Shown piece after piece: positions 1,999 to 18,561 of a DNA stretch of 64,000 nucleotides. Source of the stretch: Escherichia phage 4MG. Location of the stretch: the sequence record NC_022968.1; one strand, 5' to 3'. The notes below the pieces were generated by a model, which saw only the letters and a list, made by a program, of their open reading frames with translations, was not told the DNA's origin and ran no database searches. Within the stretch, counting starts at the first letter, position 1. Each line of letters opens with the position of its first letter. A program made the translations under genes and the position numbers.

Positions 1999-3275
1999 GC
2001 CAACTATTTGTATCGCGCAGCGCTGCCCGTAAGTTTGCAGCAGAAAATGGCATGAAGGTTGTGGATCGCGGGGTATCCCCGGCGGTACTGGCAACTGGTC
2101 GTTGGATGGTTGTTCCAAAAGACAGCCAAGGGGCTTCAAAGCCCCCTGAGGTTGACATGAGCTTCACCTCTGAAGCCGTTCCTGCTCAGTCTTCTATGTT
2201 CTTTGCGAGTCGTGGTGAAGCCCGTGACTTTGCAAGGGGCAAAAAGAATGCAAAGATTATCGATCATGCTCAGGGTCCTCGCGGGGTAAACTACGGTGCG
2301 GTTAAAGATCTTGGTAAGCAAGGTAAGCGTTGGGAAGTGACTTTTGAGGTTACCGACCTGCATATCGAAGCCACTGTCACACTGTTGCCTGAACCACGCA
2401 AGGTCCCTGTGACTGTGGTTGTTGAAGAGTCCGAACCAAAGACGTACTTCGACGAAGAGACTGTTGAGAAGAAAGATCCTGTGGTTATCATGACCCCCGG
2501 TAATGTCTGCATCTCTATGCCTGATGGTACTCAGCACACGATCAACCGTGACAACGAGATCTTCCCGGATGTCGGTCTCCTACTGATTGAGGGCGACATT
2601 GATGGTGCTATCGCCCTGATCGAGGCAGGTAAGGAAGCTAAAGCAGAGAAGGTTGTTGATCTCGGACCTGATCTGAAACTACTGGACGGAATTCTGTACT
2701 GGCACGGACAGAAGCAGGAGACAACTCTTGCAAAACGTATCCTGAATGATATCGAAAATGGCACTTTCGATGAGCGATACGTTAAGTTCATGCAAAAGCT
2801 GATGCACAACCCGTCCTACGCTTCTGTGCAGATGCTGTATGACTTTATTCAGCACAACGACCTTGAGATCCTTGAAAATGGTGACGTTAAGGCGTATAAG
2901 AAGATCACCAACACAGGTGATGGTCCTCGTGATACCCGAACCAAGAAGGTTCCAAACTACAAAGGCCAGATTATTTCTATGCCACGAAACATGGTTGAAG
3001 ATAATCCAAGTGTCTCTTGTAGCCAGGGCCTGCACATTGCCTCTTTGGAATATGCAGGTGGGTTTGGTGGTAATAGCCTGATCGAGGTTGCTGTTAACCC
3101 GGCAGACGTGGTTAGCGTCCCTTACGACTACAACCAGCAGAAGTGCCGTTGCTGTCGCTATGAAGTGCTTACGGGGGTTGACAAGCCAGTAGGCGCACCG
3201 GATATTCTGGTAATCGGTGCAGCAGGTGAAATCCTGGAGCAAATCTATCTGGAAGAAGAAACTAAGGAGGATTGA
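1995..3275 (+). CDS. hypothetical protein, translationally coupled between ATPase and helicase
   Basis: 426 aa ORF; ATGA overlaps at both ends; contains VVVEE ... DIDG motifs spaced like a Toprim core (inference only). Confidence 0.55.
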   Translation: MSQLFVSRSAARKFAAENGMKVVDRGVSPAVLATGRWMVVPKDSQGASKPPEVDMSFTSEAVPAQSSMFFASRGEARDFARGKKNAKIIDHAQGPRGVNYGAVKDLGKQGKRWEVTFEVTDLHIEATVTLLPEPRKVPVTVVVEESEPKTYFDEETVEKKDPVVIMTPGNVCISMPDGTQHTINRDNEIFPDVGLLLIEGDIDGAIALIEAGKEAKAEKVVDLGPDLKLLDGILYWHGQKQETTLAKRILNDIENGTFDERYVKFMQKLMHNPSYASVQMLYDFIQHNDLEILENGDVKAYKKITNTGDGPRDTRTKKVPNYKGQIISMPRNMVEDNPSVSCSQGLHIASLEYAGGFGGNSLIEVAVNPADVVSVPYDYNQQKCRCCRYEVLTGVDKPVGAPDILVIGAAGEILEQIYLEEETKED

Positions 3276-4582
3276 TGTCTGATTTTGGTGTGGGCGTTGA
3301 AGCAGCCCTTGGTGCTATCATGTCCGGTGACAACGTATTCGTTACGGGTCCCGGAGGTAGTGGCAAAAGCTACACCATTAAGACCATCCAATCTCTTTAC
3401 GCTGGTTCCGTTCTAACTGTAGCCCCCACGGGGGCTGCTGCCATTAACGTGGATGGGATGACGGCTCACCGTGCGTTTAGATTATCAATGGGTGTCGCTA
3501 CTCAGAAAGATGCTGAAGAACTCAAGCCAAAAGTAAAAAGACTGTTGAAAAGCAAAGCATTAAAGATCATCATCATTGATGAGATCAGTATGTTCCGTGC
3601 TGACAAGCTGTGGGAAATGGATATGAAGTGCCGTGCTGCACGTAGACAGCCAAACAAACCCTTCGGTGGTTTGCAGATCTGCATGTTTGGTGACTTCTTC
3701 CAGAACCCGCCTGTACTCACAGAGACAGAGAAAGAGATGTACTTCCAGTTCCACCCAACGGAATTGTGTTGTTTCTCTGATACCTGGCAAGAACTTAATC
3801 CTTACCCGGTGCTTCTTGAGAAGATTTATCGTCAGAACAGCCGTCGCTTTTCAGATATTCTGAACCTCCTTCGTCGTGGTCAGCGTATTCCGGAGATCGT
3901 AAGAGAACTGAACGGTGTCTGCTATCGTGGTGGTGAGGCAATACCCGATGCAATCACAATTACGTCTACGAATGCGGCAGCAGAAAAGGTCAACAGGAAG
4001 CGCTTTGAAGAAATTCCCGGCCTCCCGGTCCTTTACACTGCGAAAAAGAATGGTGACTTTACCCAAAAACCTGTACCTGAGGAGTTGTATCTCAAGGAAG
4101 GTGCTAAGGTGATGATCACTGTGAATGACCCGAAGGGGTTTGAAGAACCAGAGTATGTCAATGGTTCTCGCGGTGAGGTAATCGAACTTGGGAAAGAGGG
4201 AATCAAAGTCCGTCTTGAATGTGGTAAAGTTGTTGATGTTGAACCGCATGTATGGGAGAATGTTGAATACAACCCCATCAAGGTTCGTAATCCTGATGGG
4301 ACTGTCACTGAAGAGTTAGAGAAGATCACTATTGGTGAGTATCGTGCTCTTCCTATCCGTTTGGGATGGGCTGTGACAATTCATAAGGCTCAGGGCTTGA
4401 CATTGCCGCTACTTAATATAGACTTTGGGTATGGCGCTTTCGCACCCGGAATGGCATACGTTGCATTCAGTCGTGCGACAACAGCAAACGGTTTGAGGCT
4501 ATTGCGTAAGGTCAAAGAAAAAGATATCATTGTTGACCAACGTATTGTAGACTTCTACGAAAGAACTTTCCCTGGTAAATAG
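3272..4582 (+). CDS. Dda-like SF1B DNA helicase (RecD/Pif1 family)
   Basis: 436 aa; Walker A GPGGSGKS, Walker B IIIIDEIS, C-terminal TIHKAQGLT motif typical of RecD-like helicases. Confidence 0.8.
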   Translation: MMSDFGVGVEAALGAIMSGDNVFVTGPGGSGKSYTIKTIQSLYAGSVLTVAPTGAAAINVDGMTAHRAFRLSMGVATQKDAEELKPKVKRLLKSKALKIIIIDEISMFRADKLWEMDMKCRAARRQPNKPFGGLQICMFGDFFQNPPVLTETEKEMYFQFHPTELCCFSDTWQELNPYPVLLEKIYRQNSRRFSDILNLLRRGQRIPEIVRELNGVCYRGGEAIPDAITITSTNAAAEKVNRKRFEEIPGLPVLYTAKKNGDFTQKPVPEELYLKEGAKVMITVNDPKGFEEPEYVNGSRGEVIELGKEGIKVRLECGKVVDVEPHVWENVEYNPIKVRNPDGTVTEELEKITIGEYRALPIRLGWAVTIHKAQGLTLPLLNIDFGYGAFAPGMAYVAFSRATTANGLRLLRKVKEKDIIVDQRIVDFYERTFPGK

Positions 4583-4593
4583 GAGATAAAATC

Positions 4594-5103
4594 ATGGCAT
4601 CATTTTCTCGTTTAGAGTTAGCTAAAAAATTCCGTAAGGAAATCGACGACTGGAACTCAATGTCCGGTCTTCGGGCAGAAAAGGCAATGGACACCGTTCA
4701 TATCCAAATGGCCTCTCTTGACGAGATGATGTCTGCCTTTGGTTACGTTCCGCGCCGACTGCCTGAGTATCCAAACATCACTGATGGTCGCTTTGGTTAC
4801 GTCCGTGCATTCAACAACGATATCACCTCTCTCCCGGTGAACATCTCTCTGGAAGATGCAGTGCATATGCACAACGCTGGTGATTATCGTGGTAATCCAC
4901 TTCGTCGTATGAGCAATCGTATGGCGTTTGCCTTGACTAACCGCATTGTCCAGCAGGTTGCTATCCAGCGCGATAAGAAATGGGGCAACGATGGAAGCGG
5001 TATTAAATCCCAGAAGAAATGGGTAGAATTCTGCGATGACCTCAGCAATGAATACTTCGGTATTCCATTCGACGATGGTCTTGTAAACAAAGAAGGAGAA
5101 TAA
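4594..5103 (+). CDS. hypothetical protein
   Basis: 169 aa ORF with GGAGA SD upstream. Confidence 0.55.
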   Translation: MASFSRLELAKKFRKEIDDWNSMSGLRAEKAMDTVHIQMASLDEMMSAFGYVPRRLPEYPNITDGRFGYVRAFNNDITSLPVNISLEDAVHMHNAGDYRGNPLRRMSNRMAFALTNRIVQQVAIQRDKKWGNDGSGIKSQKKWVEFCDDLSNEYFGIPFDDGLVNKEGE

Positions 5104-5104
5104 A

Positions 5105-5284
5105 ATGCAGGTTGAAGACTTTACTGACCTGAGCAAGGTTTCCACAGAGAAACTACTAAAGCTGCGTGATGTGGCTCGTGACTATCACGACGAGATGCAG
5201 CAAGCAGAGCTTGAGGCATGGAATCGTTTGAATGATATCGAGAATGAATTGAAGGAGCGGAAGAATGCTGAAAAAGCTGTTTAA
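5105..5284 (+). CDS. small hypothetical protein (59 aa)
   Basis: ATG preceded by GAAGGAGA SD; not in ORF track because <60 aa; overlaps next gene start by 20 nt. Confidence 0.35.
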   Translation: MQVEDFTDLSKVSTEKLLKLRDVARDYHDEMQQAELEAWNRLNDIENELKERKNAEKAV

Positions 5285-5588
5285 TTGGCTATTTGCCAAA
5301 GAGGATGAATCCCCTCAGGGTGTTCGTGTATATGACTTCACCACCCGTGGTCCTGGTAATGACATCACCCTTCGTGTGATCGGGGATGGTGAGTATGCTG
5401 AGGCAGTTGTTTTCCTCGACATGGGGGCTGACGCGCCGGAAGTTGGTGACTTTATCGTTGTCGATCTGAGTGATTCTAAATCTACAGAAGACCTGACAGT
5501 TACCTTTGTGGTAGATACTACCGAGCCTGTTGCTCTTGGCATCACGCAGTTAACAATGTCCCGTTACGAGGGTGCTGAAAATGCATAA
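5265..5588 (+). CDS. hypothetical protein
   Basis: 107 aa ORF, AAGGAG SD. Confidence 0.5.
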   Translation: MLKKLFNWLFAKEDESPQGVRVYDFTTRGPGNDITLRVIGDGEYAEAVVFLDMGADAPEVGDFIVVDLSDSKSTEDLTVTFVVDTTEPVALGITQLTMSRYEGAENA

Positions 5589-6072
5589 AGAACGTTCAAT
5601 TGAGAAGCTCCGCGAAGACTTGGAGCGCCTCGCAAAGGATGCAACTCAGGGACAGTGGTGGATCGACTCTCACGGTCATTCTATGGTGGCGTTCTCCGAC
5701 GATAAAAACATGGAGACTGTCTTCATTACCGACCCGAACATGGGTCCAGCGGTACGCCATGCGAGCACAGGAAACCTGTCTCAGTGGAATAACGATGTTG
5801 ATGCAACATACATCGCCACAGCTTGTCCTGAGAACATTCTTCGCCTGCTGAAGGAGTTAGATTCTCGTGTCAGCCAAAGCAATGCGTGGAAGTCTGTTAG
5901 CTCTTATGTGAAAGATGGGCTTGATGGTTACGGTAAAGAGGTTAAAGACCGTGTAAGCGATGAGCTTAACCGTAATGGCTGCAACAGTGCAGCAACTCAC
6001 ATGATTTACTTCATCAAGGCATTGATCGAAGAGAATGAACAACTGAAGTCTGATCTGGAGATGGCAATATGA
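5581..6072 (+). CDS. hypothetical protein
   Basis: ORF track 5572..6072; ATG at 5581 overlaps upstream stop; start uncertain. Confidence 0.5.
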   Translation: MHKERSIEKLREDLERLAKDATQGQWWIDSHGHSMVAFSDDKNMETVFITDPNMGPAVRHASTGNLSQWNNDVDATYIATACPENILRLLKELDSRVSQSNAWKSVSSYVKDGLDGYGKEVKDRVSDELNRNGCNSAATHMIYFIKALIEENEQLKSDLEMAI

Positions 6073-12879: not shown

Positions 12880-12885
12880 TTGAAA

Positions 12886-12920
12886 AGCCCCTTGACTTCA
12901 CGGTTGAGGGGCTTTATTGT
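12886..12920 (+). terminator. rho-independent terminator
   Basis: 11-bp stem (with G-U) and 6-nt loop followed by TTTATTGTT directly after stop at 12879. Confidence 0.6.
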
Positions 12921-12948: not shown

Positions 12949-13143
12949 ATGAAGCTTTCACATTTTATTTATGCAGTGTTAGGCCTTATGGCCCTGACTA
13001 TGCTTACAACATTAGGTCTTGCCTACACAGCAGACTACCAACAACAAACTAACGATATCCTTGGTGGTGGTCTTGGCATGTTCATGCTTGAATTCTTCCT
13101 GCTTATTTTTGGCGGGATGATTGTTGATGCGTCTAACTGGTAA
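12949..13143 (+). CDS. small membrane protein (2 predicted TM helices)
   Basis: ATG at 12949 after GGAG; hydrophobic stretches; upstream part of track ORF lies in terminator hairpin. Confidence 0.4.
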   Translation: MKLSHFIYAVLGLMALTMLTTLGLAYTADYQQQTNDILGGGLGMFMLEFFLLIFGGMIVDASNW

Positions 13144-13153
13144 GGAGAAGAGA

Positions 13154-13360
13154 ATGCGTGGATTTATGCCTTGGATAAAACCTTTGGTGATTGTCGGGAT
13201 AATTGTGGTTGCAGTGTTTATTGTTGTTGACATCACAGATACCGTCACCCATAATTGTAAGCCTAACGGTGAACAACGCCTCGCAAACAGTGCAGACGGT
13301 GTTGTCGTTGAGAACAAACTGATCTGCGACGGTGGTCGCGTGAAGTGGTCTCGCTACTAA
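13154..13360 (+). CDS. small membrane protein
   Basis: ATG at 13154 after AAGGAG; N-terminal hydrophobic helix. Confidence 0.4.
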   Translation: MRGFMPWIKPLVIVGIIVVAVFIVVDITDTVTHNCKPNGEQRLANSADGVVVENKLICDGGRVKWSRY

Positions 13361-13393
13361 ACCTTGATTAAATAATCTCAAGAGGAGATTCAA

Positions 13394-13711
13394 ATGAAAA
13401 AATTAACGATTGCTCTACTGACTATGGCCTTTGTTGCGGGTGCTCATGCAGAAGATGATGATTTCCAAACTGAGCCGATGTGCAAGGTTGAGGTGTGCAA
13501 TAAAATCGAACGCTTCTCCCTCAGCATCTGGTCCCATATGAAGGACAGTATGGGTGAGACCTGCATCGACACAGTGATTCCAAAAAAGGATGCACAGGTG
13601 GGGAATATCCTGAGCGAGGAGTCTCGCTGGTATCAGGGGTCATCTATCAACCCAACCAAAAAGTCGGTGACCCGCGTATCGCAAGTCTACAAATGTCAGA
13701 AGGATCAATAA
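13394..13711 (+). CDS. secreted/periplasmic small protein
   Basis: 105 aa; N-terminal signal-peptide-like MKKLTIALLTMAFVAGAHA; 4 Cys. Confidence 0.5.
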   Translation: MKKLTIALLTMAFVAGAHAEDDDFQTEPMCKVEVCNKIERFSLSIWSHMKDSMGETCIDTVIPKKDAQVGNILSEESRWYQGSSINPTKKSVTRVSQVYKCQKDQ

Positions 13712-13712
13712 C

Positions 13713-14786
13713 ATGACCATTACTCGCGGCCTTATCTTCGGTAAGTTTGCACCACTGACCAACGGGCATATTGCCTTTATTCGTCAGGCAGCACAGCAGG
13801 TTAGTGCTCTGTATCTGTTCCTGTCCTATGACCAGAAATTCGTTGACGCACAACCAGAGTGGATTCGTCCAAAGCTGGGGCTTGCTGACCGTTATCGTGA
13901 CCTGCTGGATGTCATTGCCGATGAGGGACTTGACAACGTGAAGGTAGATTACGTTGATGAGTCGAACATCCCAGGTTATCCGGAAGGTGGCGCTGCCTAT
14001 GCAAAACTGATCCGCGAAAAACAACCGTTCGTCAAATACGACTTTGCTTTCTCTTCAGAGCCGGAGTATGAGTCTTACTTCAACGAGTTCTTCCCTGAAG
14101 CGAAGCACGTTGTGATCGACGCAGAGCGTAAAGAAGTGCCTATCTCTGCCACAATGATCCGTAACGATCCGTACAACAACTTCTACAACCTGGCGTGGCC
14201 TGCACGTAAACGCTTCATGAAAAAGGTTGCCATTGTCGGTGTTGAGAGCACGGGTAAAACCACCCTGACACAGCACTTGGCCCGTACCTTTAATGCTGGC
14301 TGGATTCCGGAGATCGGAAGGCTTATCTGTGAGCGGGAATACCACTCCAGCGAGTTCGCTATGTCTCGTGAAGACTACCTGCGTATCGCTATGGAGCACC
14401 GCCTGAAGGAGATGGAATTGGCTGGCTGGGGTGATCGTGGGGTTATGTTCTCTGACACCACAAACCTGATCACTCATTTCTCTGGTATTTGTGCCGACAA
14501 GATCGACTACTCAGATCTGTTGTTCCGTACACTGAGTCGTGAAGAGAGCTACAACTTCTATGACCTGTTCCTGTTCCTCACACCAGAGGTTCCGTGGGTT
14601 GCTGATCCTCTTCGCTTGCAGGATACACCAGAAAAGCGTAAAGAAACACATTCTTTGCTTGACACAATGATCAGGGCATCTTACGATACAAGCAGGGTGG
14701 TGGTTATCTCCGGCAGTGATTACAAAGAACGTACTCAGAAAGCCGAAGAATCTGTCCGTAAATTGCTGAATATCAATGGGGAATAA
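13713..14786 (+). CDS. nadR: NadR-like bifunctional NMN adenylyltransferase / ribosylnicotinamide kinase
   Basis: 357 aa; N-terminal nucleotidyltransferase motif GKFAPLTNGH (HxGH class); central P-loop GVESTGKTT; no HTH domain. Confidence 0.7.
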   Translation: MTITRGLIFGKFAPLTNGHIAFIRQAAQQVSALYLFLSYDQKFVDAQPEWIRPKLGLADRYRDLLDVIADEGLDNVKVDYVDESNIPGYPEGGAAYAKLIREKQPFVKYDFAFSSEPEYESYFNEFFPEAKHVVIDAERKEVPISATMIRNDPYNNFYNLAWPARKRFMKKVAIVGVESTGKTTLTQHLARTFNAGWIPEIGRLICEREYHSSEFAMSREDYLRIAMEHRLKEMELAGWGDRGVMFSDTTNLITHFSGICADKIDYSDLLFRTLSREESYNFYDLFLFLTPEVPWVADPLRLQDTPEKRKETHSLLDTMIRASYDTSRVVVISGSDYKERTQKAEESVRKLLNINGE

Positions 14787-14787
14787 G

Positions 14788-15153
14788 ATGAACGTGACAA
14801 ACTCAAGCATGAAGCAGGCTTTTGGTGTCTTGAAGGTCGTCCTGGAAAAAGCTCCAGATTTAGGCCAAGGTCTCCAGGCCTATGCGAACTGCCGTGAGCA
14901 GGGCTTCTCTATCATGAAGTTGGACTACTCAGGTGGACAAGATAATTGTCGCCAAGTGTCATTTTCGGAATGCCGTAACAGTGACCAGATCACCGTGTAC
15001 TATGGGTCAACACGCGACTTCAATTTCCAAACCAACATCCCCACGGATGATACCTATTTCAATCGTCGTAAATTCTTCGGCTATGAGAAGTACGAAGAGG
15101 CGGCTGACTGGATTGTGGCGTACCTGAAAGGTGATAAAGATGGAACAAACTAA
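14788..15153 (+). CDS. hypothetical protein
   Basis: Track ORF 14776..15153; ATG 14788 after upstream stop. Confidence 0.5.
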   Translation: MNVTNSSMKQAFGVLKVVLEKAPDLGQGLQAYANCREQGFSIMKLDYSGGQDNCRQVSFSECRNSDQITVYYGSTRDFNFQTNIPTDDTYFNRRKFFGYEKYEEAADWIVAYLKGDKDGTN

Positions 15154-15472
15154 GCCGACTCTGGTCTGGAAAACCCAGGAGGGTTTTGATATGCGAATTA
15201 GCCACATGTCTGATGAGCATATTGTTAACGCTATAAACTGGTTGCTGGTAGAACCTGGGACAGATGACCCCTCTGACCTGCTGGATACTTATCTGCAAGT
15301 CCCTATTGTTATCTGGATTCGCGAGTTGACTCAGGAGTTGTATCGTCGGCTACACCCCACAGGGATAAATCCGGTGCATATTGACCCTGAACTACCGCCA
15401 GGATTATACACGGTGGAGATAAAGACAAAGGGTGGTGCTGCGATTATTAATGGGGTGCAGAACAGTGGCTAA
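15140..15472 (+). CDS. hypothetical protein
   Basis: Track ORF 15131..15472; start uncertain. Confidence 0.45.
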   Translation: MEQTKPTLVWKTQEGFDMRISHMSDEHIVNAINWLLVEPGTDDPSDLLDTYLQVPIVIWIRELTQELYRRLHPTGINPVHIDPELPPGLYTVEIKTKGGAAIINGVQNSG

Positions 15473-15473
15473 G

Positions 15474-15794
15474 GTGCTCAACTTTTACCACATTGGTAAA
15501 GTGATCCCTGAAGGTGCGGTCTATGTGGGCCGTACCATGAAGAAGTACGGATTGGTGGGTCACAAGCTTGCTAATCCTTTCCCGTTGAACAAAGACGGGT
15601 CCAACCGTGATGAAGTGATCGAACAGTATCGCCAGTGGTTGTGGAAAAAACTTCATGAGAAGGGTGGTCACTTTAAAGAATTGATTGACCTGGACGGAAA
15701 AGATCTGGTATGCTTCTGTTCACCAAAGAGGTGTCACTGTGATGTGATACTTGCGGCAATCGAATGGGCTAAACAAAGGAGTCAAAATGTCTAA
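15474..15794 (+). CDS. hypothetical protein (Cys/His-containing C-terminus CFCSPKRCHCD)
   Basis: Track ORF 15432..15794; start uncertain (GTG 15474 or later ATG). Confidence 0.4.
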   Translation: MLNFYHIGKVIPEGAVYVGRTMKKYGLVGHKLANPFPLNKDGSNRDEVIEQYRQWLWKKLHEKGGHFKELIDLDGKDLVCFCSPKRCHCDVILAAIEWAKQRSQNV

Positions 15795-16047
15795 ACACAC
15801 ACCGGGTCCCTGGTCAAATGATGGAACAGAGGTCGGCACTGGTATCCTGCACGAAATAAAGATCGCAAAGTGTTGTCTTGTCGGGTACGAGGAGACTCGT
15901 GCCAACGCGAGGCTTATTGCAGCATCGCCGGAAATGTTGGAGCTTCTAGAGCTTTCTCTTCCGTACCTTAACGATGCAGCAAAAACAGATGGTCATGCAT
16001 TTGCAATCTATAATAAGGTTGCAAGAACTATCAAACGTTTCCAGTAG
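15787..16047 (+). CDS. hypothetical protein
   Basis: ATG 15787 after AAGGAG; within track ORF 15751..16047. Confidence 0.5.
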   Translation: MSKHTPGPWSNDGTEVGTGILHEIKIAKCCLVGYEETRANARLIAASPEMLELLELSLPYLNDAAKTDGHAFAIYNKVARTIKRFQ

Positions 16048-16055
16048 GGGATGAC

Positions 16056-16283
16056 ATGCATAAATACTACTTCACCTTCGGAATGAATCAGCAGACGAAG
16101 GATGGTATGTCCCTCGGCAACTTCTACGTCTGCATCGAAGCACCGGACATGAACACTGCACGGTTCGATATGTTCGATGCCCGCGGTAGTTCTTGGTCTT
16201 TTTCTTACACAGAAGAAGAATTTTCTGGACAACCAGAAAAATATGGGTTAACCTCTTTAACGTTAGAGCAAGTAACCTTATAA
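16056..16283 (+). CDS. hypothetical protein
   Basis: 75 aa ORF. Confidence 0.5.
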   Translation: MHKYYFTFGMNQQTKDGMSLGNFYVCIEAPDMNTARFDMFDARGSSWSFSYTEEEFSGQPEKYGLTSLTLEQVTL

Positions 16284-16302
16284 CTTAGGCACAGGAGACA
16301 TC

Positions 16303-16494
16303 ATGAGTCTTAAAAAAGATCACACCTACATCGAGGTGTATAAGAATATTGCTGGCGGCAATTCTCTTGTAATTGCTGATGATAATGGCGGTTATCGCTT
16401 AGTAGGCACAAAGATAACTGGTCAACCAATAGCGCGATTTGAAGTTTCTGTTGAAGAACTCATGGTCGCGGTAAACAATCACCAGGGAGAATAA
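16303..16494 (+). CDS. hypothetical protein
   Basis: 63 aa ORF, AGGAGA SD. Confidence 0.5.
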   Translation: MSLKKDHTYIEVYKNIAGGNSLVIADDNGGYRLVGTKITGQPIARFEVSVEELMVAVNNHQGE

Positions 16495-16495
16495 A

Positions 16496-17218
16496 ATGAA
16501 TACAAATCTGTACATTAAGACAGCGTGGACCGACTTCTATGGTTGGACAAATCTCGAATACCTCTGGCTTCTGATCTGTTCTGCATCTATTGCAACGGTC
16601 TCTATCGTCACAGGGGGTACGATGGTAGAGTTTATCTCCTCCGTCACAGGTATCGTCGGTGCGATTCTGGTTGCGAAAGGTAAACTTTCCAGCTACTATT
16701 GGGGCTTCATTGCCACAGTGCTGTATGCTTATGTGTCGTTCACGTACAAACTCTACGGTGAAACGATCATGTACACCGTCTTGTTTACCCCGATGCAGGT
16801 CATTGGTGGTATTATCTGGGCGCGTAAGCTGAATGTTTCTGCTGATGGTGAACGTGCAGACGTTATCAAGCGCTATCTGACGACGAAACAACGTTGGTTG
16901 GTGGGTCTTGCCACAGCAGCAGCCATTGTGTGTTACGCCCTGTTCATCAAAGAGCTTAAAGGTTCCTTACCTGGTCCTGATGCAGCAACGGCTATCCTGT
17001 CGGTTCTTGCAACGTGGATGATGGTTGTTCGATTGTCTGAACAGTGGTACGTGTGGATCATCGTGAACATCGTGGCTGTAGGTATGTGGGTTAACCTGAC
17101 ACTGCATCACCAGGGTGCTGGAGCAGCAAACCTTGCAATGTGGGTAACATTCCTGTTAAACTCTGTGTATGGCGCTTACAAATGGCGTAAAACAGAAAAG
17201 GAAACAGCATATGCGTGA
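16496..17218 (+). CDS. pnuC: PnuC-like nicotinamide riboside transporter
   Basis: 240 aa polytopic membrane protein; size and multi-TM layout of PnuC; WYVWIIVNIV and GGIIWARK segments resemble PnuC signature regions as recalled from memory; 1.7 kb downstream of the nadR-like gene. Confidence 0.6.
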   Translation: MNTNLYIKTAWTDFYGWTNLEYLWLLICSASIATVSIVTGGTMVEFISSVTGIVGAILVAKGKLSSYYWGFIATVLYAYVSFTYKLYGETIMYTVLFTPMQVIGGIIWARKLNVSADGERADVIKRYLTTKQRWLVGLATAAAIVCYALFIKELKGSLPGPDAATAILSVLATWMMVVRLSEQWYVWIIVNIVAVGMWVNLTLHHQGAGAANLAMWVTFLLNSVYGAYKWRKTEKETAYA

Positions 17219-17429
17219 CTTGATCGTCCCAGCAGCAATCAGTGCCTCGGTGTTCTTTATTGTTCTTGCAATATCCGTCGCACTTGGCTACTATGTTGGC
17301 ATCAGCGCGGGGGAAGTATTCGGAACACCCGGCTTTGGTGAGTACACACAGACATCCGTCGTAGTTGGTTGTACTCTGGGATTACCTCTTGGCATGGCCG
17401 CTTTTGGCATAAGTTCGGGTGTTGCATGA
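17211..17429 (+). CDS. small membrane protein
   Basis: ATG 17211 within track ORF; hydrophobic; overlaps pnuC-like stop. Confidence 0.4.
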   Translation: MRDLIVPAAISASVFFIVLAISVALGYYVGISAGEVFGTPGFGEYTQTSVVVGCTLGLPLGMAAFGISSGVA

Positions 17430-17608
17430 AAATTCGAATCATGATGTTTTTGGCAGTATTCTTTGGTTTGGTGATGTGCTCGGTAGCGGTGGCATTCTGC
17501 GGTGGGGCTAAGTTTGGAACCGACGCGTTTGGGTGGATACTGGCTACAGGGATGATGGTTGGTGTGGTTGGTGGGCTACTGGCAGCAGCGCTGCCTGACT
17601 ACAGATAG
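17426..17608 (+). CDS. small membrane protein
   Basis: ATG 17426 (ATGA overlap); hydrophobic. Confidence 0.4.
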   Translation: MKIRIMMFLAVFFGLVMCSVAVAFCGGAKFGTDAFGWILATGMMVGVVGGLLAAALPDYR

Positions 17609-17616
17609 GGTGAAAA

Positions 17617-18186
17617 GTGAAAAGAACAAAGCATATCAATAAAAATGCTTTCCGGAAGGTAGGGCGCTATGCCCTGCCATTCGCGGTGGCAATCACAGTT
17701 GCAGGTTGTGAGCAAGCAGACATTGACATGAAGATGTATAAGAATGTTGATGAGTGTATTGCGGATACGCACAAACCGGATCAGTGCCGTGCAGCAAGAC
17801 AAGAAGCAGAAAAGGTTGCAAATGAAACTGCGCCACGCTATGCTACTTACTCTGACTGCTACGCTGAGTTCGGTGACCAGTGCCGACACAACCCAAGCAG
17901 TTCAGATGGTGGTTCTTCGTGGATGCCGTTGATGATGGGATACATGATGGGTAACAGCATGAATTCCGGTTATCATTCAGCACCACTGTATCAGGATCGT
18001 TCGGGTCAGTATATGGATAATAAGTTCCGTAGCTACAATGCACGTCCTGGTCAAACGTTTAAGGTGACAAGCTCTGCGGCTAAACCGTCGATCCAGTCTC
18101 CTCGTACAACAGTTTCTCGTAGCACCACATCTTCTCGTGGTGGTTTTGGTAGCTCTGTGAGCAGCCGCTCATCTTTTGGAGGATAA
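17617..18186 (+). CDS. lipoprotein with Ser/Gly-rich C-terminus
   Basis: 189 aa; lipobox-like AITVAGC after hydrophobic N-terminus. Confidence 0.5.
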   Translation: MKRTKHINKNAFRKVGRYALPFAVAITVAGCEQADIDMKMYKNVDECIADTHKPDQCRAARQEAEKVANETAPRYATYSDCYAEFGDQCRHNPSSSDGGSSWMPLMMGYMMGNSMNSGYHSAPLYQDRSGQYMDNKFRSYNARPGQTFKVTSSAAKPSIQSPRTTVSRSTTSSRGGFGSSVSSRSSFGG

Positions 18187-18189
18187 GGA

Positions 18190-18561
18190 ATGATTGGATT
18201 TTGGGAATGGTACACAATGCACAATAACTGGGTGTCTAGTGTTATTCTGCTTGTTATCTTCGGCTTCTGGGGATGGTCATTAGGATCTGGATTCTCCACC
18301 TGGAAACACAAGACAGTTTCCTATCTGTTTGTGGGGGCTGTTGGGTTCCTTATGTTTTATCTGGGGACATATCAGGGTGGATACGGGATGTACAAACGTC
18401 ACTGGACAACTTGTTCTAAACCTGCTGCGGTAGAGGCGTTCTATGTGTTCGATGCACAGAAAGAGCGTTGCTTCAAGCCTGTGGTCGGCTTTGCCCCTGT
18501 TGATGACAATCAGGTTAAAACGCTGACTCCAAAACAAATGGAGACTGGCGAATGGTTATGA
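18190..18561 (+). CDS. membrane protein
   Basis: 123 aa; GGAGGA SD; two hydrophobic helices. Confidence 0.5.
   Translation: MIGFWEWYTMHNNWVSSVILLVIFGFWGWSLGSGFSTWKHKTVSYLFVGAVGFLMFYLGTYQGGYGMYKRHWTTCSKPAAVEAFYVFDAQKERCFKPVVGFAPVDDNQVKTLTPKQMETGEWL

Follow-up and report, generated by a model that had tools for sequence, protein, structure and literature searches.

A NadR-type enzyme and a PnuC-family carrier as a probable nicotinamide riboside salvage module in Escherichia phage 4MG

Results

The window analyzed here is a 64,000-nucleotide stretch of Escherichia phage 4MG (NC_022968.1), a Vequintavirinae (Seunavirus-like) phage; the features for which window coordinates are given below lie on its plus strand. 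The ORF at 13713..14786, with exactly these coordinates in the ORF list, encodes a 357-aa NadR-type enzyme without an HTH, predicted to be bifunctional and identified by HMM and PDB matches and by an alignment of invariant residues. The N-terminal part (aa ~4-165) corresponds to the NMN adenylyltransferase and the C-terminal part (aa ~171-340) to the ribosylnicotinamide kinase. A HIGH-superfamily nucleotidyltransferase domain is found in the former by Pfam CTP_transf_like (PF01467; aa 8-151, E=6.3e-07, 30.1 bits against a cut-off of 21) and by TIGR00125 (32 bits, cut-off 27.7). The latter is matched by AAA_28 (PF13521; aa 171-340, E=2e-21, 77.3 bits, cut-off 27) and shows what is expected of a P-loop kinase, a Lys in Walker A, an Asp in Walker B and an Arg in the lid. 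The protein also matches PHROG 3462, 'nicotinamide-nucleotide adenylyltransferase' (E=5.7e-140), and four solved NadR structures (PDB search, E=3.5e-60 to 5.8e-26), so that the two enzyme halves proposed in the first-pass annotation are borne out. One of these four, PDB 9x6f, is a phage NadR orthologue, 36% identical to the window protein and 100% identical in sequence to NadR of T5-like Salmonella phages.

The regulatory HTH, whose absence had been suggested earlier, is indeed missing, because NF005988 (411 positions) is matched only from position 65 onward, starting with residue 4 of the protein; a Pfam search of the ORF upstream of NadR, which encodes a secreted protein, returned no HTH. 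Both NadR equivalog models match the protein, but below their curated cut-offs (TIGR01526: E=7e-53, 180 bits versus 341.15; NF005988: E=1.4e-47, 162.7 bits versus 201). The protein belongs to a divergent phage clade.

Every residue invariant across eight aligned phage and bacterial NadR proteins (five of them from phages; H. influenzae, L. lactis and E. coli-like NadR included) is kept in the window protein, among them G10, F12, P14, G18, H19, S145, R150, G176, S179, G181, K182, D248, T249, D298 and R301, and no loss of catalytic residues is seen among them. Overall, the protein is only 26-29% identical to bacterial NadR. Nucleotidyltransferase motif 1, GKFAPLTNGH (aa 10-19; 13740..13769), contains the first five of these residues. 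It had been assigned to the HxGH class; the motif is present, but it reads TNGH, a variant of (T/H)xGH with Thr (T16) in place of the first His. Thr at this position is a standard variant in the superfamily, as in E. coli PPAT, and it replaces His in four of the five aligned phage proteins, ICP1 retaining the His. Motif 2, ISATMIR (aa 144-150; 14142..14162), whose position was also obtained from pairwise alignments to 1lw7, 6gye and 8x7f, is of the ISxTxxR type and holds S145 and R150, so that both motifs, (T/H)xGH and ISxTxxR, occur in the protein.

In the kinase half, the Walker A P-loop noted in the first-pass annotation, GVESTGKTT (aa 176-184; 14238..14264), has its residues G176, S179, G181 and K182 invariant. 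The Walker B segment VMFSDT (aa 244-249; 14442..14459) has invariant F246, D248 and T249, and the lid segment WVADPLR (aa 295-301; 14595..14615) has invariant D298 and R301. The locations of Walker A and the lid follow published work on NadR, which also notes that the Asp of Walker B is essentially conserved (PMC7221760). Here the catalytic Asp248 is retained, and Thr stands where bacterial 'DTD' has its second Asp. Two further departures from bacterial NadR are the Trp of 'YPNGW', which is Gly, and the Tyr of 'EYGR', which is Ile; the phage enzyme could thus differ in the substrate that it prefers or in efficiency.

At 16496..17218, 1,709 nt downstream of the NadR gene, lies, again exactly where listed, the gene for a 240-aa PnuC-family protein, a predicted nicotinamide riboside (NR) carrier, in agreement with the polytopic PnuC-like protein described earlier at 1.7 kb. 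The protein matches PF04973 (E=7.8e-39, 133.9 bits, cut-off 27.3), the PnuC equivalog TIGR01528 (103.5 bits, cut-off 42.45), PHROG 1880 (E=1.6e-75) and PDB 4qtn (E=7.8e-39 over aa 14-235), which places it in the Pnu fold and sequence family. Profile searches, proposed in the first-pass annotation as a check, thus give significant matches to the NMNAT, AAA-kinase and PnuC families alike. Hydropathy indicates eight hydrophobic segments (aa ~20-38, 42-60, 64-82, 91-109, 134-152, 163-181, 185-203 and 207-225), the seven-TM core with the optional N-terminal TM of the N. mucosa-type architecture, agreeing with the eight TM of PnuC_Nm (PMC5749112). The enterobacterial subfamily model NF011926 scores 45.5 bits, far below its cut-off of 335. 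The Pnu ligand-binding motif WxxW(x)3D/N is present in its Asn form, WxxW(x)3N, as WYVWIIVN (aa 184-191; 17045..17068), aligned to QWALWIVVN of 4qtn, and W108 and W230, the proposed gate tryptophans, align with Trp residues of 4qtn. Roles have been assigned to this motif and to the gate residues in Pnu carriers (PMC5749112).

Three features of the carrier point to NR as its probable substrate: the equivalog match, the Asn in its motif and its gene's linkage to NadR. It is quite unlikely that the pair handles some other riboside, a vitamin or a nicotinic-acid form instead. The sub-threshold NadR equivalog scores and the substituted Trp and Tyr of the window NadR clade would fit such a reading, as would the thiamine (PnuT) and riboflavin (PnuX) carriers that also belong to the Pnu family (PMC5749112). 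Against it, TIGR01528 is above its cut-off, the NR carrier 4qtn matches best among solved structures, the motif Asn is that of the NR carrier PnuC_Nm rather than the Asp mutated in PnuT, and a NadR-type partner enzyme is canonical for NR.

Six ORFs, each with a PHROG match at E<=1e-19, separate the two genes; the earlier count had been five. The first (14776..15153; 125 aa as listed, likely start at the ATG at 14788; PHROG 6319) is 76% identical in phage FENT2, the closest relative, and is unmatched at E<=1e-3 in the locus of Erwinia phage Hena1, these two being the Vequintavirinae relatives compared gene by gene. The second (15131..15472; 113 aa; PHROG 16964) has a homologue, 55% identical, that is the single ORF between NadR and PnuC in Hena1 (positions 5805-6002 of that locus). 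The third (15432..15794) encodes a DUF4326-domain protein (PF14216, E=4.8e-21), for which the PHROG label 'NrdA-like' is a mislabel (cf. PMC9503650, PMC7824862); DUF4326 has been proposed by Iyer et al. to be rhodanese-phosphatase-like and to act on ribose-linked phosphates of ADPr derivatives (PMC9503650), and in Hena1 a DUF4326 gene lies upstream of NadR. The fourth (15751..16047; 98 aa as listed, likely start at the ATG at 15787; PHROG 1273) and the fifth (16056..16283; 75 aa; PHROG 13997; 96% identical in FENT2) are followed by a sixth (16303..16494; 63 aa; PHROG 24647, E=4.1e-40). No tblastn match to this last ORF was obtained in any fetched locus searched, and it is a local insertion, since FENT2 and Hena1 lack it.

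The NadR and PnuC genes share a strand within a tightly packed block right after the DNA-replication genes. Each starts 1 nt past the preceding stop and is preceded by an RBS-like sequence, and no plus-strand terminator-like site occurs between 13776 and 18123. Upstream of the block, the best sigma-70-like promoter match (TTGACA-17-CATAAT, 11/12; 13227..13255) might mark the start of a transcription unit, although promoter-like matches in the region are as numerous as expected by chance. From this arrangement we infer that the block is probably co-transcribed in the replication phase.

A highly conserved gene that ends 1 nt ahead of the NadR start (13394..13711; PHROG 6894) encodes a secreted protein of 105 aa in which four Cys are invariant. 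In three of the nine lineages sampled (Seunavirus-like, Eneladusvirus and T5-like) this gene abuts NadR/PnuC, and in the other six it stands alone. This adjacency is perhaps a new observation, and the protein is a possible accessory component of the module.

Among 50,697 phage records, NadR and PnuC each occur in about 740-770, with nearly equal organism counts. Dozens of close relatives have both genes annotated, as do hundreds of other phages, and the T5-like BASEL phages IrmaTschudi, TrudiRoth and TrudiGerster are among the NadR/PnuC matches. The two genes adjoin in two T5-like loci and in ICP1 and Eneladusvirus phages. Across the compared phage loci, identity to the window proteins drops in parallel (NadR 92/60/44/39/36%, PnuC 97/68/56/37/37%). 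In the sample, several unrelated lineages have kept the two genes together, namely Vequintavirinae, T5-like phages, ICP1 and a jumbo phage. Taken singly, NadR and PnuC are also present in many further groups, Herelleviridae-type phages of Gram-positive hosts among them.

Such retention bears on whether the genes are dispensable cargo, held by linkage only and without effect on infection under most conditions. The region that holds both is mosaic, with intervening ORFs that differ from one relative to another, and enterobacterial hosts carry NadR and PnuC of their own, so what a phage copy would add is unclear. This explanation is nonetheless very improbable, given that neither ORF is disrupted and no catalytic residue is missing, that the pair persists in several unrelated lineages and that the genes are distant from their counterparts in enterobacterial hosts, as the NF011926 score illustrates. 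That distance argues for old phage genes under purifying selection rather than recent pick-ups.

Discussion

Both proteins belong to their respective families, their motifs are intact, and their genes are linked across phage lineages. We consider it likely that together they constitute a phage-borne module for NR salvage, of a type already known, which would aid the NAD+ pool. The NR to NMN to NAD+ reading put forward in the first-pass annotation is well supported by homology, through the HMMs, the homologues of solved structure and the invariant motif residues. NadR of L. lactis, likewise without an HTH, catalyzes both steps from NR through NMN to NAD (PMC7221760), and the same two activities are predicted for the phage protein, with the solved structure of the orthologue 9x6f as indirect support.

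We propose a model in which PnuC enters the host inner membrane and external NR diffuses into the cell by facilitated diffusion. The C-terminal P-loop kinase of NadR would then convert NR to NMN, trapping it in the cell, and the N-terminal (T/H)xGH nucleotidyltransferase would adenylate NMN to NAD+, at a cost of two ATP per NAD+. Pnu carriers work by facilitated diffusion with metabolic trapping (PMC5749112), and a kinase partner is needed for this reason. As the DNA-binding HTH is missing, NadR would act purely as an enzyme, with no repressor domain. The likely gain is an NAD+ pool upheld in the infected cell; this benefit may extend to cells in which NAD+-degrading defences have been triggered, since the route does not depend on NAD+ breakdown products. 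The earlier suggestion that NAD+ could be rebuilt independently of host pools does not hold, because the route requires host ATP and external NR, and it leaves unused the ADPR and nicotinamide freed by NADase defences. This dependence on NR supply and the non-use of these products speak against the module reading, as do the NadR equivalog scores below cut-off, the positions at which the protein departs from bacterial NadR, the hosts' own NadR and PnuC, the six unrelated small ORFs between the genes and promoter matches that do not exceed chance.

NR salvage by phage NadR and PnuC is a known, ordinary feature, and PHROGs 3462 and 1880 are already named accordingly. Phage NadR was described by Iyer et al. 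in 2022 (PMC9503650), and Osterman et al. proposed in 2024 that a phage NadR+PnuC operon would constitute a further route to NAD+ (bioRxiv 10.1101/2024.02.11.579819, Discussion, Fig. S3B). In the searchable literature we found no later test of that proposal, and no activity, transport or expression data for the NadR and PnuC of the window or for their phage orthologues.

Probably this lineage has two NAD+ routes, of which the module is one and not a substitute for the other, because FENT2 also has an adjacent Prs-like/Nampt-like (NARP1-type) pair. Its counterpart would fall just beyond the window; within the 64 kb there is no NARP1-type gene, and ORFs of at least 180 aa between 20 and 64 kb are all on the minus strand or overlapping shadow ORFs, the matches obtained there being structural. 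A PVP-SE1-like phage has been reported with a Nampt-like and Prs-like set as in FENT2, and ICP1 has both NadR and a Nampt-like gene. Such co-occurrence might suggest that the adenylyltransferase half is what matters, NadR mainly turning intracellular NMN from host NAD-dependent ligase turnover or a phage Nampt-type enzyme into NAD+, with the kinase and PnuC minor in a short lytic cycle. Iyer et al. indeed place NadR among the adenylyltransferases that use NadV-made NMN (PMC9503650). We nevertheless regard this as improbable. PnuC accompanies and adjoins NadR in each lineage examined and the Walker A, Walker B and lid residues of the kinase are fully conserved, neither of which would be expected were only the NMNAT half under selection. 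Further, the Nampt-like protein of FENT2 is encoded beside a Prs-like one and resembles Felixounavirus-type proteins (~40% identity, E~1e-113) more than the Nampt of a KVP40-like phage (~31%, E~1e-22), an architecture that is that of NARP1, which yields NAD+ directly, without NMN (Osterman et al. 2024). The FENT2 ligase is annotated as ATP-dependent.

Returning to NR salvage, the route had been thought distinct from described phage pathways. In its chemistry this stands for NARP1 and NARP2, but NadR+PnuC itself had already been proposed by Osterman et al. With NARP1 (Adps and Namat) the module presumably shares its purpose, to rebuild NAD+ in the infected cell. Chemically the two differ altogether, NARP1 proceeding from NAD+ breakdown products by ADPR to ADPR-PP to NAD+. 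With NARP2 (Nampt and Nmnat of KVP40) it shares a final adenylyltransferase step, NMN + ATP to NAD+, in a lytic phage. The NMN of NARP2 comes from nicotinamide and PRPP, whereas here it would come from imported NR through the kinase, the adenylyltransferase is NadR-type and fused to that kinase, and the module includes a membrane carrier. The KVP40 Nmnat we take to be of the NadM-Nudix type. Iyer et al. describe NadM, the other adenylyltransferase of phages, as a fusion with a Nudix domain (PMC9503650).

The phage NadR and PnuC discussed by Osterman et al. and Iyer et al. are of the same families (PHROG 3462 and PHROG 1880), with the same proposed chemistry and purpose. In T5-like, ICP1 and Eneladusvirus phages the genes are adjacent, whereas the window and other Seunavirus-like and Mydovirus-like phages have five to six small ORFs between them, DUF4326 included. 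Relative to the bacterial PnuC-NadR systems (H. influenzae, Salmonella/E. coli and L. lactis; 1lw7, 8x7f, 6gye, 4qtn), nothing has changed in how the domains of the enzyme core are arranged, and the phage proteins retain every invariant motif residue as well as WxxW(x)3N and the gate tryptophans. The phage NadR differs from bacterial NadR in having TNGH rather than HTGH, a replaced 'YPNGW' Trp, no repressor function and scores below the equivalog cut-offs, sharing with L. lactis NadR the lack of an HTH, and the carrier differs from enterobacterial PnuC in being of the 8-TM Neisseria type.

Results

Both genes of the proposed route from nicotinamide riboside (NR) to NAD+ lie exactly where the first-pass annotation had placed them, a NadR-like ORF of 357 aa at 13713-14786 (+) and a PnuC-like ORF of 240 aa at 16496-17218 (+). 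The genome that carries them belongs to a lytic myovirus in the Vequintavirinae subfamily. The top public match to window positions 1-25000 is Enterobacter phage EC152 (87.3% identity, 90% coverage), with E. coli phage LNA4 and Cronobacter phage GAP31 as further top matches, and positions 13000-17500 are matched best by Enterobacter phage FENT2 of the genus Seunavirus (87.1%, 82% coverage). On the plus strand, the first 22 kb encode rIIA/rIIB, a helicase, a primase-helicase and a family-A DNA polymerase. Between 20 and 64 kb, every ORF of at least 180 aa is on the minus strand or is an overlapping shadow ORF, and a cluster of ~20 tRNA genes occupies the right end (60179-63824, minus strand).

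The NadR-like protein has both of the catalytic halves ascribed to it, with motif residues intact: the nucleotidyltransferase domain matches PF01467 (cytidylyltransferase-like; E=6.3e-07, passing the gathering threshold) and the P-loop kinase domain matches PF13521 (AAA_28; E=2e-21). PHROG 3462, 'nicotinamide-nucleotide adenylyltransferase', spans the protein end to end (E=5.7e-140), and the NadR models TIGR01526 (E=7e-53) and NF005988 (E=1.4e-47) match significantly, both below their curated equivalog cut-offs. Because the NF005988 match starts at profile position 65, the regulatory HTH repressor domain is absent, as had been proposed. Its absence is not unusual, since L. lactis NadR, also without the HTH, converts NR and NMN to NAD (PMC7221760). 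All four NadR sequences in the PDB were matched, the best being 9x6f/9x6h (E=3.5e-60). This sequence is 100% identical to NadR of T5-like Epseptimavirus Salmonella phages, and the structure of a phage NadR has therefore already been solved; a literature search found no paper on 9x6f/9x6h.

We aligned the protein with four other phage and three bacterial NadR proteins, assigning motif positions after PMC7221760. Invariant throughout are G10, F12, P14, G18 and H19 of nucleotidyltransferase motif 1, S145 and R150 of the ISxTxxR motif, G176, S179, G181 and K182 of Walker A, F246, D248 and T249 of Walker B, and D298 and R301 of the lid. The nucleotidyltransferase motif thus stands as annotated, but its reading as HxGH does not, the actual residues being TNGH. 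Threonine at the first-histidine position is common to four of the five phage proteins in the alignment and is a standard (T/H)xGH variant, seen for example in PPAT. Compared with bacterial NadR, the window clade has the Trp of YPNGW replaced by Gly, the Tyr of EYGR by Ile and the second Asp of DTD by Thr, substitutions that allow for some difference in kinetics or specificity.

The PnuC-like protein belongs to the PnuC family by PF04973 (E=7.8e-39), by the equivalog TIGR01528 (103.5 bits, above the cut-off of 42.45) and by PHROG 1880 (E=1.6e-75). Residues 14-235 match 4qtn, the solved Neisseria mucosa NR carrier (E=7.8e-39), and the eight hydrophobic segments of this polytopic protein resemble the eight transmembrane segments of the Neisseria PnuC. 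The ligand motif WxxW(x)3N is present (W184...N191) and, in comparison with 4qtn, both proposed gate tryptophans are kept; the roles of these residues have been described for Pnu carriers (PMC5749112). Such carriers are facilitated-diffusion uniporters, and net uptake needs phosphorylation of the substrate inside the cell (PMC5749112). Herein lies the logic of the gene pair, because for NR this phosphorylation is supplied by the kinase half of NadR.

Judged by their divergence, the two are old phage genes and not recent host captures, because the enterobacterial PnuC subfamily model gives 45.5 bits, far short of its threshold of 335, and the NadR-like protein is only 26-29% identical to the bacterial NadR proteins in our alignment. 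We rejected recent capture from an enterobacterial host on this PnuC score and on the 29% identity to E. coli-type NadR.

The PnuC-like gene had been placed about 1.7 kb downstream of the NadR-like gene, and the measured gap is 1,709 nt. Each of the two starts has an RBS-like sequence and lies 1 nt past the preceding stop codon. Co-transcription of the NadR-PnuC block is plausible, we infer, because no plus-strand terminator-like hairpin is predicted within 13776-18123 and a near-consensus promoter-like site lies at 13227-13255, although sites of this kind are no more frequent in the region than expected by chance. An Rfam search of the whole window at gathering thresholds gave only tRNAs, with no NAD+ riboswitch or 'pnuC motif' RNA 5' of PnuC, where the gap to the preceding ORF is 1 nt. 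Further upstream, a strong terminator-like hairpin at 12884-12915 (+), with a 14-bp stem (AAAGCCCC...GGGGCTTT) and a T-rich tail after it, stands after the DNA polymerase block and before the small ORFs preceding NadR, and is likely a transcription-unit boundary; a promoter-like TTGACT is embedded in it. Directly 3' of PnuC is a run of small envelope-type proteins (17169-18561, +) in PHROGs of unknown function. Two of them (86 and 79 aa) are 2-TM proteins, one of 189 aa is a DUF1190 protein (PF06693, E=4e-39) bearing a lipobox-like VAGC, and one of 123 aa is a membrane protein.

Of 50,697 phage records surveyed by tblastn, 736 matched the NadR-like protein and 773 the PnuC-like one, and counts by organism were almost equal for the two (NadR/PnuC: Salmonella 177/174, Klebsiella 48/47, Escherichia 36/35, Bacillus 24/24, Lactobacillus 18/18, Erwinia 14/14, Vibrio 303/360). 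NadR is directly followed by PnuC in the T5-like Yersinia phage phiR2-01 and Salmonella phage S114, in Vibrio phage ICP1 and in the jumbo Erwinia phage pEa_SNUABM_49 (Eneladusvirus); one ORF separates them in Hena1 (Vequintavirinae), and five or six small ORFs do so in the window and its nearest relatives. Across FENT2, Hena1, Eneladusvirus, ICP1 and phiR2-01, the two genes lose identity to the window in step (NadR 92, 60, 44, 39 and 36%; PnuC 97, 68, 56, 37 and 37%), a pattern that fits inheritance as a unit.

The intervening small ORFs had been counted as five and are in fact six. The additional one, a 63-aa ORF directly before PnuC (16303-16494, +; PHROG 24647, E=4e-40), is a small local insertion, since it is absent from FENT2 and Hena1. 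The third of the six (15432-15794, +) carries a DUF4326 domain (E=4.8e-21), and its PHROG label, 'NrdA-like ribonucleotide reductase', looks like a misannotation. DUF4326 has been assigned to the rhodanese-phosphatase superfamily, with ribose-linked phosphates of ADPr derivatives as proposed substrate (Iyer et al., PMC9503650; PMC7824862). We considered it as a recurrent third partner of NadR and PnuC. It is close to NadR only in Vequintavirinae (the window, FENT2 and, upstream of NadR, Hena1), and the idea was rejected on finding it not adjoining in T5-like phages, ICP1 or Eneladusvirus, where the neighbours are unrelated (SPFH, DNA methylase, DUF7390 or proteins with no match). In the extended NARP1 pathway, moreover, the phosphatase is a Macro-domain protein and not DUF4326.

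Ending 1 nt before the NadR start is a gene for a secreted 105-aa protein with a signal peptide (13394-13711, +; PHROG 6894, E=1.8e-53). Homologues occur in 262 phage records, and four cysteines and a SESRWYQGSSINPTKKSVTRV block are invariant across myo-, sipho- and jumbo phages, the family being more conserved than NadR or PnuC. In Eneladusvirus the gene is again directly upstream of NadR; its C-terminal half is 80% identical to that of the window and is the only part with nucleotide similarity, NadR being 44% identical. In T5-like phages it lies directly downstream of PnuC, as read directly in S114 and found by coordinate matching in eight further records. The linkage is not constant: it holds in three of nine sampled lineages, and in the other six (phiAS5, pEt-SU, OBP, 7-11, RaK2 and PHA46) the gene stands alone, with no NadR or PnuC within 4 kb. 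We regard the linkage as suggestive, and the protein might be a member of the NadR/PnuC pathway. An AF2 model, of modest confidence (pLDDT 69), shows a sheet of four strands, for which Foldseek found no match in the PDB at E<=0.001. Of the elements described here, PHROG 6894 was the only one for which we found no discussion in the literature searched. At 2693-2994 of the pEa_SNUABM_49 locus the homologue is split over two frames and annotated as two short ORFs; in the sister phage pEa_SNUABM_50 the match is in one piece, and the split reflects either an error in sequencing or a genuine frameshift.

Discussion

The observation of the gene pair is confirmed, and its functional interpretation is supported by homology. 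PnuC would admit external NR, the kinase domain of NadR would trap it as NMN, and the adenylyltransferase domain would make NAD+ from NMN, at a cost of two ATP. We hold this biochemical reading with good confidence. The benefit of the route, whose enzyme has no repressor domain, would be an NAD+ pool sustained during infection. A role against NAD+-depleting defence systems is an attractive possibility, because the route would need no NAD+ breakdown products, but such a role would depend on environmental NR, and enterobacterial hosts carry NadR and PnuC of their own. The PHROG 6894 protein could be in the periplasm with PnuC, for example supplying, capturing or protecting NR, although we think it improbable that NadR, PnuC and PHROG 6894 form a three-part module that gives this lineage a second line of NAD+ rescue, independent of the first. 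On this improbable reading, NR import would complement the NARP1-type operon of close relatives. It would not share the dependence of NARP1 on NAD+ breakdown products, and should therefore also work against defences such as aRES, which convert NAD+ to products that NARP1 cannot reuse.

The first-pass annotation set the route apart from the described phage NAD pathways. Chemically it is distinct, but it is not undescribed. Iyer et al. 2022 (PMC9503650) list phage NadR, with its HIGH nucleotidyltransferase and P-loop NR kinase, among the NAD+ synthesis domains of medium and jumbo phages. Osterman et al. 2024 (10.1101/2024.02.11.579819) have put forward an operon of NadR and PnuC as one more candidate pathway of NAD+ reconstitution in phages, and a 2024 description of a phage compared with PVP-SE1 reports PnuC, NMNAT, Nampt, Prs and a SIR2-family protein. 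Both product names are already annotated in GenBank records of close relatives, and the T5-like BASEL phages IrmaTschudi, TrudiRoth and TrudiGerster are among our tblastn matches. The searchable literature yielded no experimental test of phage NadR/PnuC and no name such as 'NARP3'. The pair and the proposed NAD+ reconstitution route are thus already known, and the window is one more example and not a discovery. Its remaining value is a candidate NAD+ route and a conserved secreted neighbour that might belong to it.

The lineage probably carries a second route. FENT2, the closest relative, has two adjoining genes at 83.2-85.7 kb that are annotated as ribose-phosphate pyrophosphokinase and nicotinamide phosphoribosyltransferase (83171-85738 of the record; 3172-5739 of our FENT2 locus, L006), which by the FENT2-to-window offset project to ~68-71 kb, just beyond the window end. 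Our Pfam scan took in 10 window ORFs, eight of them from the minus-strand region at 20-64 kb; four of these eight large ORFs gave matches, all structural (portal, terminase, major capsid and Dit), and no NadV/Nampt, Prs or other NAD gene was found among the scanned ORFs of that region. The FENT2 Nampt-like protein is ~40% identical to Felixounavirus-type proteins (E~1e-113) and ~31% identical to Nampt of the large vibriophage VH7D (E~1e-22), which we take to be KVP40-like. Adjoining Prs and Nampt annotations are the signature of NARP1 (Adps and Namat), as shown by Osterman et al. (10.1101/2024.02.11.579819). It is this gene pair, with the closeness of the Nampt-like protein to Felixounavirus-type proteins, that points to a NARP1-type route besides NadR/PnuC. 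ICP1, too, combines NadR and PnuC with a Nampt-like gene. These findings weaken the case for NadR/PnuC as an alternative to the known pathways and suggest that it is layered with them.

Bacteria commonly counter phages by depleting NAD+, and the phage pathways that rebuild it, NARP1 and NARP2, were discovered only recently. As NadR/PnuC and a NARP1-type pair seem to occur together in the lineage, and cultivable relatives exist, it is a good system in which to ask whether such routes are redundant or complementary. Beside NARP1 and NARP2, import of NR would be a third, chemically independent means by which phages keep NAD+ up, and would link phage success to the environmental availability of vitamin B3.
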